13,808 nt of DNA, from positions 1 to 13,808 of the forward strand of contig JAHPZE010000052.1 of the NCBI GenBank assembly GCA_019058365.1. Direction: 5' to 3'. Position numbers and translations under genes: made by a program. Within the stretch, counting starts at the first letter, position 1, and each line of letters starts with the position of its first letter. The DNA comes from Promethearchaeota archaeon. GTDB taxonomy: Archaea; Asgardarchaeota; Lokiarchaeia; Sigyniarchaeales; SOKP01. Of this stretch, positions 4,019 through 9,451 are shown one piece after another. The notes below the pieces were generated by a model. That model made no database searches. It was given only the letters and a program-made list of their open reading frames with translations, and was not told the origin of the DNA.

Positions 4019-4117
4019 CTATCGACCGCAATCCTTACAAATCGCTCTCGAATCCGTAAAATCGAGCTTTATCTCTTTACCGCATTTCATACAATTTATT
4101 CTTATTCTTTTTTTCAT
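4019..4117 (-). CDS. 32-aa zinc-ribbon microprotein (CxxCG-x13-CxxCG), not in the ORF track
   Basis: Manual translation MKKRIRINCMKCGKEIKLDFTDSRAICKDCGR*; GAGGG RBS upstream; T-runs downstream; paralog 160 bp upstream with synonymous differences. Confidence 0.8.
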   Translation of the reverse strand: MKKRIRINCMKCGKEIKLDFTDSRAICKDCGR

Positions 4118-4130
4118 AACAATCCCTCTT

Positions 4131-4274
4131 TTAATTAAAAATCAAAATTTCTTGTAGTTCTTGGGTTATGCTCAATTTGATTTTTTCGACACTTCCTACA
4201 AAGTGCCCTCGAGCCGTAAAATCCAGTTTTATTTCTTTACCGCATTTTCTACAGTTTATTATTATTTTAGCCAT
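4131..4274 (-). pseudogene. Frameshifted paralog of the zinc-ribbon microprotein
   Basis: Frame 0 gives MAKIIINCRKCGKEIKLDFTARGHFVGSVEKIKLSITQELQEILIFN*. One base is missing near 4213 relative to the paralog; the -1 frame continues SRALCRKCRKNQIEHNPRTTRNFDF* (stop 4135-4137), restoring the second CxxC. GTGA RBS upstream. Confidence 0.75.
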
Positions 4275-4314
4275 ATTTTTCACTTAATTTTTTAATAAAT
4301 AGGAAAAAATAGTT

Positions 4315-4835: not shown

Positions 4836-7796
4836 ATGAGTAGATCAGACGGAGTTTTATATCCTCCTGGTGAGATATTAAACCCCATCATGGGGAAGAC
4901 CGATTTTGAATATGTTATATTATGGATGCTTAGTAATAATGACATTTGCGAGTGGTCAGATTTCACTGCTGAAATTAGTGAATCAACCTTATCTGGTAAT
5001 TTGAATAAATTGATGAGCAAGGGTTATATTAAAAAGCCTGAAAAAGGGAAATATGTAATTACATCACAAGGGCAAGATCGATACACTGAATTAGTTTATT
5101 TCAAAGAATCAGGAGAAACATTATTGTATCCACCAAAAGCAATACTCAAGACAAGGAATTATGATCATTGGATTTTATGGATGCTTTGTAATAATCCTTC
5201 ATGTAAATGGTCCGATTTTAAACAGACACCCTTATCAATCAACCAATCCTCCTTATCTAATACACTCAATTCATTGTTAAATGATGGTTTTATTGCTAGA
5301 GAAAATAAAGAATATGTTAAAACACAATTAGGTGAAATAGAGTATTTTAGAATATTAAAATCGTATGATTTAGACCGTCAAACTATATTAGAGCAAGAAA
5401 GTAAGAGAATTGAAGAAATTACAGAAAAAACTAGTATATTCTTTAAGAAATATAAAATAGAAGATGATGAGTTAAAATTTCGGTATCTGGATAACATTCT
5501 GAAATTGTCTTATTCTAAAATTGAATCGATGCTAAGAGAAGAGGAAGATTTTAATAAAGTTTTGTTGTACTTTTCGATTAATCATCCTGATCATTATCCC
5601 GAATTTATTTCAGTTGAAAAATTTTCAAAAAGATACAATATAGATATAAAAACATTAGATTTTCTTATAATGAGAATTGTAGATAATGAGTTTTTTGGTA
5701 TAAAATTTTTTAAATTGGAGGATGAACAAGGAGGAACTTATTATTTTCAAAAGAATGAAATCGTCGAAAAAATACTTAATGCAATTGTAGAAAAACATAT
5801 TACAAAATTCACATATTTAAATAAATTTCATGAAACTACAACAACAGACGTGGGATGGCTATTAGAAATAATTTTAAACGATATTTGCAGTAATTTATTC
5901 AATGAACATCTAAAACCCTCATTAAAATCATTTTTACCTGAATATATTAAATATTTAGCGTATAAAATTGAGACAGAGAAAAAATTAGTTGATATTGAAG
6001 CTAAATTAGCAGGATTTATATGGAGAAATGTCAATGAAGGATTCCAAGCTTTTGATCCTTCAGACATGCCTATAACTGGAGAAGAGGATGAATTATATTA
6101 TACAATGGATAGCAGCACTTTCAATGTATTAGATATTGTGGTTTTGTCTAAATTTTTTTATTTAAACACGAGTGAAGTTCAGGAGACCTATAGTTTGAAT
6201 AAAATAGATATTTATAATAAAATAATAAAAAATTTGTATAGAAATAAAGTTTCTAAAGCAAGGGAACTTTCGCAAAATATTACCACTAAAATAAAAACCA
6301 TAAATCAATTAATAATGAAGGATATTATAGCTACAGCAGAGAATAATTTTAATAATTCAATTAAAATTACTAATGGAATTATTGATAAATATCCAAATGA
6401 ATTTATTGGATACTTATTACAATCTATCACTTACTTATTGATGGATAATTATGAAAAATCTTTAGAGATCATTGAGAATGCACTAAAAGTAACACCTAAT
6501 GTTCTCTTAATCTGCCAAAAAGCACAGATTTTAATGAGAACATCTCAAGGAGCAAATGCATTAGATTATATTAATGACGCATTATCTCAGTATCCAGATA
6601 ATTCTTCATTATTAAAAACAAAATACTTAATTTATATTACTTATTGGATGGCACTAGTAAAGGATTATAATGAACCTCTTGATATTATAAATCAATTAAC
6701 CAATTTGAATCAAAAGGATCAAGAGATTTTACTCTTAAAAAGTCTTTATTATTGTCTGATCAATAAATATAAAGAAGCAAAGCGTTTAATAATAAATGAA
6801 ATTGATTTTAATAATTTTAAAAAAAATCCCAGAATTGATACAATTGCTTACTTTATTTTGGTTTATTCTTATTTAGCACGCGGTAAATTTGATAAAGCTT
6901 TAGAAATTGCAAATTTAGTTTTAACAATATATCCCGAACATCCTACTTCATTTTTTACAAAAGCCTTAGTAATTGGATACAATTTGATTTATAGATTTAC
7001 ATTTAAGGACCCAAATATTGATGCTTTTACTGAATTGATAACATCTACTCTCTCTTTTGAAAAAATTAATTATAATAAAACAATTTATCTTTTATTCCAA
7101 TCACAAGTTTTAAATGGGCTTGGAAAATACGATGAAAGCATTAATTCTATTGATACTGCTATTGAAATAGTCCCGACATTGAATTATCTATATGCTAGGA
7201 AGGCATACTTATTAATAACATCTAAGAAAGAATCTCAAGCATTAAGTTTAATTAATGAATTGTTAGAAAGTCGTCAACCATTGAAGTATAGCCTATTGAA
7301 ACAAAAATCTTATGTCCAAATCGTTCTAAAACAATACGATGAAGGATTGAAGACTGTTAATGAAGCAATTGAACTATATCCCCACGATAACGATTTTATC
7401 AATAACAAAGCCATGATCTTAGGCTATTTAGGAAGAAGAGAGGAAGCTATTGAAACTGCTGAACACCTAATAAGCCTTAATCCAAAATGTGGAAATTCTT
7501 ATGATACATATGGTGAAGTTTTAATGGCTCTTAAAGAATACGAAAAAGCTATTGAAAAATTTAAAGAAGCTTTAACCCTTGAACCCACTGGATGGTTTGC
7601 CTATGAAACTTGTTTAAAAATGGGACAATGTTTTAAGGAGCTTGGAAATATTGAAAAAGCTCTTGAATATTATGAGAAAGGAGAAAAATTGACAGAAAAG
7701 ATGCATCCTAGTTACAGGAATAATTATCTAGAGAAAACAGAGAAATTAATTTCTGAAGCTAAAATATTACTTAGAGAATCAAAAAACAGTGAATAA
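4836..7796 (+). CDS. Large regulator: two tandem N-terminal winged-helix domains plus a C-terminal TPR array
   Basis: Internal repeat LYPP...ILWMLxNN..CxWSDF...IxxSxLSxxLNxL...GxI...YVxTxxG occurs twice in the first ~175 aa; many TPR units in the C-half (e.g. YDTYGEVLMALKEYEKAIEKFKEALTLEP). Confidence 0.85.
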   Translation: MSRSDGVLYPPGEILNPIMGKTDFEYVILWMLSNNDICEWSDFTAEISESTLSGNLNKLMSKGYIKKPEKGKYVITSQGQDRYTELVYFKESGETLLYPPKAILKTRNYDHWILWMLCNNPSCKWSDFKQTPLSINQSSLSNTLNSLLNDGFIARENKEYVKTQLGEIEYFRILKSYDLDRQTILEQESKRIEEITEKTSIFFKKYKIEDDELKFRYLDNILKLSYSKIESMLREEEDFNKVLLYFSINHPDHYPEFISVEKFSKRYNIDIKTLDFLIMRIVDNEFFGIKFFKLEDEQGGTYYFQKNEIVEKILNAIVEKHITKFTYLNKFHETTTTDVGWLLEIILNDICSNLFNEHLKPSLKSFLPEYIKYLAYKIETEKKLVDIEAKLAGFIWRNVNEGFQAFDPSDMPITGEEDELYYTMDSSTFNVLDIVVLSKFFYLNTSEVQETYSLNKIDIYNKIIKNLYRNKVSKARELSQNITTKIKTINQLIMKDIIATAENNFNNSIKITNGIIDKYPNEFIGYLLQSITYLLMDNYEKSLEIIENALKVTPNVLLICQKAQILMRTSQGANALDYINDALSQYPDNSSLLKTKYLIYITYWMALVKDYNEPLDIINQLTNLNQKDQEILLLKSLYYCLINKYKEAKRLIINEIDFNNFKKNPRIDTIAYFILVYSYLARGKFDKALEIANLVLTIYPEHPTSFFTKALVIGYNLIYRFTFKDPNIDAFTELITSTLSFEKINYNKTIYLLFQSQVLNGLGKYDESINSIDTAIEIVPTLNYLYARKAYLLITSKKESQALSLINELLESRQPLKYSLLKQKSYVQIVLKQYDEGLKTVNEAIELYPHDNDFINNKAMILGYLGRREEAIETAEHLISLNPKCGNSYDTYGEVLMALKEYEKAIEKFKEALTLEPTGWFAYETCLKMGQCFKELGNIEKALEYYEKGEKLTEKMHPSYRNNYLEKTEKLISEAKILLRESKNSE

Positions 7797-7810
7797 TCCA
7801 AATAAAAAAT

Positions 7811-8482
7811 GTGATCTTAATGGATTACAGATTTGTAAAAGCATTTGAGTTTAATTTTAATTTTGGAACACTTTTATCAGTTGATTTCAGCACGTGTTCT
7901 GAAGCTTCAGACTTAATTAACCTTACTGAAGAAATATTTAATGAAATTAGAGATTGTATTAATGTTCGAGGCATTCCCAATCTAATATGGTTTAAAGGAA
8001 TAACTAACTCTGTAAATCCTTCAAATTTTACATTGATTACAAAAATGATTAGAGCGGTATATCCAAAACAAAAAATTGGTATTTATTTGAATTGTGGAAT
8101 TTTTCAAGATGAGGAGTTTCGAAACGTTTTTCATGGGTGCGACTTGGTTGCTATTAATCTCAATACCGTTGAGCACTTTCAATTTTCAAAAATTAATACT
8201 TGTCCTGAATTTATTAATTCTAAAGCCGTATTAGAAGGAATAATAGAATTTAGTAAAAATTTCAAGGGTAAATTAGGCATTTATACTTTGTTTTTAAAAG
8301 ATGTTAATGATAGCATTAAGAATGTAGAAAGATTAAAAGAATTCTTATTGCGCGTCATGCCAGATCATTATTCTGTTAGTAATTATATGTTAAATGGCTT
8401 TGAACCCGTTTCGACAGATTTTAAAGAAGGAGTTAAAGAAATCTTGAAAGATCTTCCTTTCAAGGTTATTTATATGTTCTAA
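7811..8482 (+). CDS. Degenerate radical-SAM-fold protein (COG0731/TYW1-like) lacking the CxxxCxxC motif; likely start ATG 7820
   Basis: IGIYLNCGIFQDEEFR...CDLVAINLNT...FSKIN...VLEGIIEFSKNFKGKL...LFLKDVNDS...MPD is colinear with the recalled COG0731 pattern (VAVLTNGSLL..EVR..ADLV.PSLDA..F..INRP..IIEGL..F...Y.G.I..E.ML..G.NDS...PD). Only one Cys remains at the cluster-motif position. Confidence 0.75.
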   Translation: MILMDYRFVKAFEFNFNFGTLLSVDFSTCSEASDLINLTEEIFNEIRDCINVRGIPNLIWFKGITNSVNPSNFTLITKMIRAVYPKQKIGIYLNCGIFQDEEFRNVFHGCDLVAINLNTVEHFQFSKINTCPEFINSKAVLEGIIEFSKNFKGKLGIYTLFLKDVNDSIKNVERLKEFLLRVMPDHYSVSNYMLNGFEPVSTDFKEGVKEILKDLPFKVIYMF

Positions 8483-8518: not shown

Positions 8519-8989
8519 TTAACATGGTTCAAATTTGAAACCACAACACTCACATAGATTTTCAAGATTTTTAATGTATTTTAACATTGAATTGTACCAT
8601 TTGTCCAATAATTTTTTTAACTGGATTTTAATTGTATCCATATTTTTAGCATTATACACATAAAGATATCCTTGTTTTTTAGAATCTATTAACCCTTTCG
8701 CATTAGTATATTCTTTCATTGATATCGAACTGCGTTTAACAAATTTTAACATAGATAGCACTTGAAGAGCTCTTTGAATTGAACTTCTGTCCATCTCTAA
8801 TGTGAGTGCTACTTCAGATGTCCTAACATCTTTATTCTTCAATAAATGACAAAATACTTTAGACTCAGTACTGTTTAAACCTAATATACATTTAAACAAT
8901 TGTTCACTGGAAAATTCCGCTTTATTATTTAAAATCTGGTCAATTTTCTCAAATTCTTTTAACTTTTTATTAATTACTTCCATTGGCAA
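8519..8989 (-). CDS. HTH transcriptional regulator (COG3355/TrmB-like) with Cys-rich C-terminus
   Basis: LFKCILGLNSTESKVF...TSEVALTLEMDRSSIQRALQVL...GYLYVY...LDKWY; tail CECCGFKFEPC. Confidence 0.85.
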   Translation of the reverse strand: MPMEVINKKLKEFEKIDQILNNKAEFSSEQLFKCILGLNSTESKVFCHLLKNKDVRTSEVALTLEMDRSSIQRALQVLSMLKFVKRSSISMKEYTNAKGLIDSKKQGYLYVYNAKNMDTIKIQLKKLLDKWYNSMLKYIKNLENLCECCGFKFEPC

Positions 8990-9043
8990 TCAATACAAAT
9001 TAATATAAAAAATTTAAAGAAAAAAGGAATTAATTTAATAATT

Positions 9044-9451
9044 TCATTTTTTTAATTTTTCTAATACTTTCTTCATTCCTTCATAGTTTATTGCTCCAAC
9101 AATTTGATTTATAACCTCGTCATTTTTAATAAATAAGGTTGTAGGAATTCCTGTTATTCCATACTTCATCGCTAAAGCGTTATTTTCATCAACATTAACC
9201 TTTATAAAAATAAAATCGCTTTGAAATTCTCCTTGAAGTTTCTTAAAAATTGGAGCAAAAAACATGCAAGGTCCACACCATACAGCCCAAAAATCTATAA
9301 TAATTATTTTATCAGGATAATCCTTCAATAATTTATTAAATTCTTCAGAAGAATGTATCTCTATTACATGTTCTGGCATCGTTTGATGTTTTAATAAAGT
9401 TTCAGCTTTTTTCATTCTTAACCTTTCTAGGTCCTTATCTGCTTCTTGCAT
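9044..9451 (-). CDS. trxA: Thioredoxin
   Basis: DFWAVWCGPC active site, KVNVDEN, YGITGIPT cis-Pro loop; archaeal-type N-terminal DxDLERLRxKK extension. Confidence 0.95.
   Translation of the reverse strand: MQEADKDLERLRMKKAETLLKHQTMPEHVIEIHSSEEFNKLLKDYPDKIIIIDFWAVWCGPCMFFAPIFKKLQGEFQSDFIFIKVNVDENNALAMKYGITGIPTTLFIKNDEVINQIVGAINYEGMKKVLEKLKK

Follow-up and report, generated by a model that had tools for sequence, protein, structure and literature searches.

Few enzyme superfamilies are larger than that of the radical S-adenosylmethionine (SAM) enzymes, whose members are as a rule taken to be Fe-S radical enzymes. The locus described here lies on a 13,808-nt contig of a Promethearchaeota archaeon (JAHPZE010000052.1; hereafter "the window", meaning the whole stretch of DNA that was analyzed), and it raises the question of what a radical SAM protein becomes when its cluster site has disappeared. 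The initial annotation had read one gene of the window as an intact radical SAM pseudoenzyme with the Fe-S motif excised, and had proposed that its product was repurposed as a subunit for a regulator. A relic in decay, an enzyme with a new chemistry, a metal-binding or redox protein, and a subunit of the neighboring regulator-like protein are all conceivable identities for such a gene, and each makes contact with different parts of the evidence.

The gene itself is real. An uninterrupted plus-strand ORF occupies 7811-8482 in a window of 28% G+C and would encode 223 amino acids (aa) if read from GTG 7811; with 220 open codons at this G+C content and 87 homolog clusters, a random ORF is impossible. 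Translation most likely begins at ATG 7820 (M-D-Y-R...), giving a protein of 220 aa, because this is the length of 62 of the 87 homolog clusters, because model positions 1-220 fall on 7820-8479 in the genome search, and because the upstream bases ATGTGATCTTA are near-identical across most orthologous loci. With the start placed there, GTG 7811 would belong to an SD-like GTGAT, situated 5-6 nt upstream of the ATG and retained in nearly all orthologous loci, rather than serve as the initiation codon. Of the initial description of an intact ORF with a ribosome-binding site, the open frame stands and the binding site is borne out by this conserved element, but the start moves by 9 nt. The gap between the end of the TPR gene (7796) and the ATG is 23 nt, which agrees with the initial placement of the ORF close behind that gene. 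Residues are numbered throughout from V1 at 7811 (Table 1).

Table 1. Coordinates of the cluster-less gene, its altered sites, and associated features of the window.
Feature	Position	Strand	Description
32-aa CxxC...CxxC zinc-ribbon microprotein gene	4019..4117	-	Divergent from the partner gene; position conserved in many core-clade loci
Partner gene, 986-aa wHTH-TPR protein	4836..7796	+	Two N-terminal winged helices, conserved middle, C-terminal TPR array
Conserved ATGTGATCTTA element with SD-like GTGAT	7809..7819	+	Abuts the ATG; inside the 23-nt gap after the TPR stop
Cluster-less radical SAM-fold protein gene	7820..8482	+	220 aa; listed ORF starts at GTG 7811; stop codon 8480-8482
Short loop S27-D34 replacing the CxxxCxxC [4Fe-4S] loop	7889..7912	+	Lone Cys C30, not conserved
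K62-G-I-T-N-S67, end of beta-2	7994..8011	+	At the place of the GxGEP ("GGE") SAM-amino-binding motif; motif lost
N94-C95, end of beta-3	8090..8095	+	N invariant family-wide; C95 new in the cluster-less clade, G/A in relatives
T130-C131, loop after beta-4	8198..8203	+	T130 at the Arg (R-P/H) position of relatives; C131 newly fixed

At the 3' end, a hairpin with an 11-bp stem and a T-rich tail (8440-8467) falls within the last codons of the cluster-less gene. It can form a stem-loop on either strand, between this gene and a convergent TrmB-like gene (8519-8989), and may be a terminator shared by the two. The TrmB/Lrs14-like regulator gene and a thioredoxin gene (together 8519-9451, minus strand) lie directly downstream in this convergent orientation in 18 of 38 related loci, all of them closer relatives.

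The predicted fold of the protein is that of the radical SAM superfamily. An AlphaFold2 model based on a 30-sequence alignment (pLDDT 87.4, pTM 0.85) has strands and helices ordered as in a beta/alpha barrel, and every top Foldseek match to it was a radical SAM enzyme: PFL-AE (8fo0/3c8f; E 4e-7, TMq 0.71), together with SuiB, NifB, viperin, and RlmN. VIA-align 2, run against 48,161 chains, likewise placed PFL-AE first (3c8f_A; Z 16.6, rmsd 2.9 over 202 residues), and its best 40 matches were all radical SAM enzymes. Sequence comparison by itself hardly detects the relationship. The Pfam Radical_SAM profile (PF04055) scored 14.2 bits against a gathering threshold of 29.5 (E 0.051), with a match restricted to profile positions 30-159 that begins past the Cys motif. 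No NCBIfam family was matched and no equivalog threshold reached; PDB searches by sequence only, with either the protein or its family profile, gave a best radical SAM match of just E 0.32. Matches in the ESM Atlas, used as leads only, comprised the protein's own cluster, unnamed bacterial clusters, and radical SAM clusters. Judged from the model, the protein has the partial (beta/alpha)6 TIM-barrel core of the superfamily, and the initial view that a partial radical SAM barrel is retained is upheld by the agreement of AlphaFold2, Foldseek, and VIA-align 2. A split gene with its cluster-bearing N-terminus encoded elsewhere was considered and ruled out, as the protein aligns to its relatives from residue 1, with beta-1 and the N-terminal hairpin present and just an internal loop missing.

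Searched by profile, 1.84 billion representatives yielded 1,405 relatives of the cluster-less protein. Those nearest to it that carry CxxxCxxC are approximately 238 aa long and align to the window's protein end to end, and the profile of this Asgard COG0731-like radical SAM family (A3) matches the cluster-less protein at E 2.8e-43; sequence comparison thereby points to descent from this small family. Genomes elsewhere in the genus and family contain cluster-bearing 238-aa paralogs. None was found in the window's own genome, where the next-closest proteins, 315 and 265 aa long, are radical SAM proteins of the ordinary kind. The nearest intact relative there is the 315-aa protein (locus L039:1174-3570, contig C16), a member of a widespread FGPVPSRRLG...CxxxCxxC family whose gene adjoins NifU-like and Mrp/ApbC-like Fe-S assembly genes. 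A winged helix in the C-terminal extension (~100 residues) of this ~310-aa family, which serves as outgroup below, was also considered and rejected, the match being sub-threshold (TBPIP winged helix, E 0.012).

Alignment of 43 cluster-less members with 35 cluster-bearing relatives (78 sequences) locates the loss precisely. After beta-1 (VDF-STCSEASDL-INLTEEIF), the cluster-less protein is 18-19 residues shorter than its nearest cluster-bearing relatives, and the deleted block, K-T-C-x-F-N-C-x-Y-C-x-x-G-x-T-T-x-x, takes away the whole CxxxCxxC loop through one gap. The 19 columns of the cluster loop are missing in 41-43 of the 43 cluster-less members and are present, with three Cys, in all 35 relatives, so that the single Cys and shortened loop noticed initially correspond to a deletion exactly spanning the cluster block. 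Similarly, KGITNS does occupy the GxGEP position of relatives, as the initial annotation had claimed. In these columns relatives have G (35/35), E (32/35), and P (32/35), as against G14/T11/N11, D25/N7/E7, and S21 in the cluster-less clade. A third element is the R-P/H pair after beta-4, with R in 27 of 35 relatives; its Arg aligns to the I-G-R-G position of viperin-like structures, a residue that presumably contacts SAM. The cluster-less clade is variable at this site (K24, A5, and T4 of 43) and has C131 as the next residue in 41 of 43. No invariant three-Cys set replaces the lost motif among cluster-less members. With these losses, the protein is excluded as a canonical radical SAM enzyme, and the absence of all three SAM-binding elements tested makes radical SAM chemistry very unlikely. 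With an apparently catalytic ancestor and its catalytic and cofactor residues gone, it would be classed as a pseudoenzyme.

The order of events was reconstructed from a maximum-likelihood tree in which the ~310-aa family served to root 52 rows; a quick tree of 78 rows agrees with it. Cluster-less members form a clade nested in the A3 family with support of 100/99, on a long stem of 0.45 substitutions per site, a length to which the GGE columns kept in the tree contribute (gaps were treated as missing data). Its sister is a cluster-bearing, TPR-adjacent clade (support 93/88), and one change suffices to explain TPR adjacency on the tree. Read from alignment and tree, the cluster loop was lost in one ancient deletion. 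The initial annotation had called for a search for other Cys-less orthologs, and these turned out to be the rule: CxxxCxxC occurs in 0 of the 87 homolog clusters, which reach down to 38% identity, and in 0 of the 43 aligned members, the loss falling on one branch.

Genes that have lost their catalytic motifs may simply be decaying, and a strain-specific radical SAM pseudogene would account both for the missing motifs and for a Pfam score under threshold. However, the cluster-less gene is under purifying selection like its neighbors: against ten orthologs, dN/dS is 0.15-0.20, as compared with 0.16-0.20 for the wHTH-TPR gene, 0.10-0.24 for the TrmB-like gene, and 0.10-0.34 for the thioredoxin gene. 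The gene is intact in all 87 clusters, occurs in 18 of the 21 further genomes sampled from the window's genus, and shows 28 invariant columns in the 30-sequence alignment of its family; the tree has a single ancient loss with conservation thereafter. A decaying relic is accordingly barely conceivable, strain-specific decay being ruled out by the intact clusters, the dN/dS values, the genus-wide presence, and the tree, and the initial judgment that this is not a decaying gene holds.

Among 301 Asgard genomes sampled, full-length cluster-less copies were confined to two genera of one GTDB family. Some metagenome-assembled genome (MAG) records that carry the gene are labeled Thor-, Hod-, or Hermodarchaeota, at odds with this one-family distribution. 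One copy comes from a record filed as "uncultured Desulfobacteraceae bacterium" (L033; CAZFSF010000187.1); its protein is identical to that of a locus filed as "uncultured archaeon" (L034), with the same TPR gene upstream, and the bacterial label is probably a binning error rather than a sign of gene transfer.

The most constant feature of the gene's surroundings is its partner. A ~990-aa wHTH-TPR gene lies immediately upstream on the same strand in 37 of the 38 cluster-less copies whose loci were read, a count among related genomes that partly reflects shared ancestry; the lone exception is a copy starting at a contig end. Adjacency persists where both proteins are just 38%-40% identical to those of the window, and the two genes are apparently co-transcribed. 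The partner matches two winged-helix families in Pfam (HTH_34, MarR) and a long TPR array, and is best conserved in its N-terminal 470 residues. From these winged-helix matches, we infer that it is a transcription regulator. Its middle region (172-470) was modeled by AlphaFold2 with a pLDDT of 75 as a helix-helix-helix-hairpin unit followed by long helices, and contains what looks like a third winged helix; Foldseek returned nothing for this region at E <= 1e-3, with weak winged-helix matches, and the ESM Atlas held nothing usable for it. No fused wHTH-TPR/barrel protein was present among the longer proteins searched, which is weak evidence against a physical complex.

The sister clade extends the partnership back in time. 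In this TPR-linked subset of the 238-aa paralogs (L078, L080, L085, L089, and L090), the intact radical SAM gene directly follows an 843-871-aa wHTH-TPR paralog of 36%-44% identity. Since the sister clade keeps the cluster and yet follows such a paralog, the partnership is older than the loss of the Fe-S site, and conservation followed that single loss. The initial claim of linkage to a regulator gains support on both counts, from the 37 of 38 adjacent copies and from the sister clade. The sister operons (L080:3413-8309, L085:6558-11351, and L089:3757-8526) consist of a wHTH-TPR gene, an intact 238-aa radical SAM gene, an ATC_hydrolase-like gene, and a DJ-1/PfpI or second radical SAM gene; in L078 the third gene encodes a metallo-beta-lactamase (MBL). 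These operons represent an uncharacterized pathway headed by a regulator-like gene. Other 238-aa members adjoin nitroreductase-family genes instead. On one 461-kb contig (G204 contig C28; loci L036 and L085), three wHTH-TPR/radical SAM modules, two of them cluster-less and the third intact, share a 30-kb stretch (~292-320 kb), a local expansion of the module family.

What the barrel now does must be sought in the residues that replaced its active site. Kept family-wide are the Asn of T-N-G (78/78 sequences), the N-D after beta-5, and the Pro before beta-6, and newly fixed in the cluster-less clade are Q87, Y92, C95, N116, N118, C131, Y158, S188, S190, and Y192. Going by strand positions in the model, most of the newly fixed residues would map to the C-terminal ends of strands beta-3 to beta-6, or close by, and to the loop that follows beta-4, all parts of the old active-site face. 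A further residue, W60, occurs in 43 of 43 members of the cluster-less clade, in 10 of 10 of the TPR-linked cluster-bearing clade, and in 4 of 25 sequences elsewhere; being common to both TPR-linked clades and rare otherwise, it is a candidate contact with the partner.

We consider it fairly probable that the cluster-less protein is a bound, non-radical subunit of the wHTH-TPR protein, with a pocket that senses a ligand and tunes the regulator. Under this proposal, a barrel derived from a ~238-aa COG0731-like radical SAM enzyme would have abandoned radical chemistry and would act bound to the wHTH-TPR protein, as the second gene product of a two-gene unit. The remodeled polar pocket that now occupies the old active-site face (Q87, Y92, N94, C95, N116, N118, C131, Y158, S188, S190, and Y192) would recognize a small ligand, perhaps akin to the ancestral substrate or product, and binding would modulate the DNA binding of the regulator, in the manner of enzyme-derived co-regulators such as DhaQ with DhaS. 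The non-catalytic ligand-binding or adaptor role suggested initially is likewise an inference.

Ligand sensing and a new enzyme activity would nonetheless account equally well for a strongly conserved polar pocket. The barrel could be a neofunctionalized enzyme whose Asn/Cys/Ser/Tyr pocket performs cluster-independent catalysis, its enzymatic output being co-transcribed with the regulator. Approximately ten pocket positions are invariant only in the cluster-less clade, which is beyond the needs of a passive scaffold; the long stem of the clade followed by strong conservation would fit a functional shift, and the wHTH-TPR genes of sister modules head operons that encode true enzymes (radical SAM, ATC_hydrolase-like, and DJ-1/PfpI). 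We regard this as unlikely, however, given that Pfam, NCBIfam, and the PDB yielded no match to any non-radical enzyme family, that no acid/base or metal triad is recognizable, and that none of the sister operon's other enzymes is encoded here, leaving the barrel alone with the regulator.

The Cys residues of the pocket bear on yet another reading. C95 (35/43) and C131 (41/43) are the only newly fixed Cys of the cluster-less clade, both on the former active-site face by strand position, and divergent members have CxC or CCC at 129-131. C110, at the start of strand beta-4, is an ancestral Cys and, by strand polarity, would sit on the far barrel face, away from the active site. C95 and C131, joined by C129 in the divergent subclade, could bind a metal, form a redox disulfide, or complete an Fe-S site together with the partner or with four-Cys microproteins, so that the protein would sense thiols or metals or would retain residual Fe-S chemistry with a cluster supplied in trans. 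Genes for a thioredoxin and a Cys-rich TrmB-like regulator are adjacent in the 18 of 38 loci mentioned above, and CxxC...CxxC microprotein genes face the partner gene. Against this, the core clade has just two fixed Cys and no conserved His, the SAM-binding elements tested are all lost, the thioredoxin neighborhood is confined to close relatives and missing at more distant loci, and the divergent cluster-less subclade lacks the microproteins. We therefore consider a metal or redox site of this kind decidedly improbable.

The microprotein genes are a recurrent feature of the partner gene's upstream side. The 32-aa microprotein of the window has tblastn matches in more than 20 loci, and a pattern scan found a four-Cys ORF upstream of 22 partner genes. 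A second tiny gene (4131-4283, minus strand), also divergent and upstream of the wHTH-TPR gene, encodes ~49 aa elsewhere; the window's copy is seemingly frameshifted past ...KLDFT and has lost its second CxxC. Neither the cluster-bearing sister modules nor the loci of the divergent cluster-less subclade yielded any such tiny gene. A different, 68-aa four-Cys ORF (HCPECNC...SCPGCE) lies divergently before shorter (~840-aa) wHTH-TPR paralogs of three loci that also carry the longer form (L006:12362-12568, L007:4823-5029, and L031:8629-8838; all minus strand), and the wHTH-TPR regulator family seems to be habitually paired with small Cys-rich genes.

Returning to the regulator-bound subunit, a more elaborate form of the proposal can be put forward tentatively, as a possibility rather than an expectation. 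The wHTH-TPR protein and the dead barrel may constitute an Asgard-specific two-protein transcription switch in which the old active site serves as receptor for a small molecule or for the adjacent zinc-ribbon microprotein, and which evolved from a sister system that couples this regulator family with an active radical SAM pathway. If this were true, the locus would be a traceable case of an enzyme becoming a sensor of its own former chemistry.

The case matters in several ways. A conserved branch has kept the radical SAM barrel and dropped both the cluster and the SAM sites, and its living sister remains intact with the same kind of partner. For the study of pseudoenzyme evolution, this offers one dated loss, a burst of change, and subsequent conservation; for Asgard biology, it points to a family of regulators, specific to the lineage, in which a protein may serve as co-factor. 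Pairs of active and dead modules provide a natural experiment on what wHTH-TPR proteins sense. With regard to annotation, JGI names some orthologs "wyosine synthetase" or "RlmN", and public records have "hypothetical protein"; the enzyme names are not to be trusted, as the loss of the cluster and SAM motifs leaves them unjustified.

Our literature search yielded no publication on radical SAM pseudoenzymes or partner proteins that lack the cluster in this way, or on the Asgard pair, and comparison is best made with the closest relatives. The ~238-aa Asgard A3 proteins, COG0731-like and uncharacterized, share with the cluster-less protein an N-terminal M-x-Y-K-F/Y-V/L-K and a C-terminal L-P-F-x-V-x-Y-x-F, but differ in keeping C-x3-C-x2-C (35/35), GxGEP, and the Arg, and in passing the Pfam Radical_SAM threshold. 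Their TPR-linked subclade has the gene partner family and W60 in common with the cluster-less clade, whereas its genes belong to operons of three to four genes with ATC_hydrolase-like and DJ-1/PfpI or MBL genes. The solved structures nearest in sequence to the sister family are viperin-like (E 1e-9), NifB (1e-5), and TYW1 (9e-5), with MoaA in the same group. PFL-AE (3c8f, 8fo0), a minimal radical SAM core, is the best whole-chain structural match, of similar size and without auxiliary domains; identity is 14%, however, and PFL-AE binds [4Fe-4S] and SAM, for which the window's protein lacks both sites.

Departure from CxxxCxxC does not by itself imply loss of the cluster. Reviews describe ThiC, Elp3, and HmdB, radical SAM enzymes whose motifs are non-canonical but which nevertheless bind Fe/S (PMC2996862). 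They resemble the cluster-less protein in this departure, but have an alternative Cys motif and, where tested, use Fe/S and SAM, whereas the window's protein has neither a three-Cys set nor the SAM motifs.

On the side of the partner only, RRNPP-type regulators (Rgg, PlcR, and NprR) are similar in combining a DNA-binding domain with a TPR array and in having small genes adjacent, a resemblance that does not imply homology. The partner differs in having winged helices rather than an XRE-type HTH, in being three times longer, and in having a barrel subunit alongside. For the pair as a whole, the nearest analogy lies in DhaQ-DhaS. DhaQ is a paralog of a kinase subunit. In Lactococcus lactis, dihydroxyacetone-binding DhaQ acts as co-activator, or macromolecular inducer, of the transcription factor DhaS (PMC4325133). 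The likeness is a working analogy only, that of a metabolite-binding protein encoded with a DNA-binding regulator; what the two systems have in common is the encoding with a DNA-binding regulator, seen here in the near-constant adjacency, the 23-nt gap, and the conserved SD-like element. The folds and families are unrelated, those of the Lactococcus proteins being TetR and DhaK-like.
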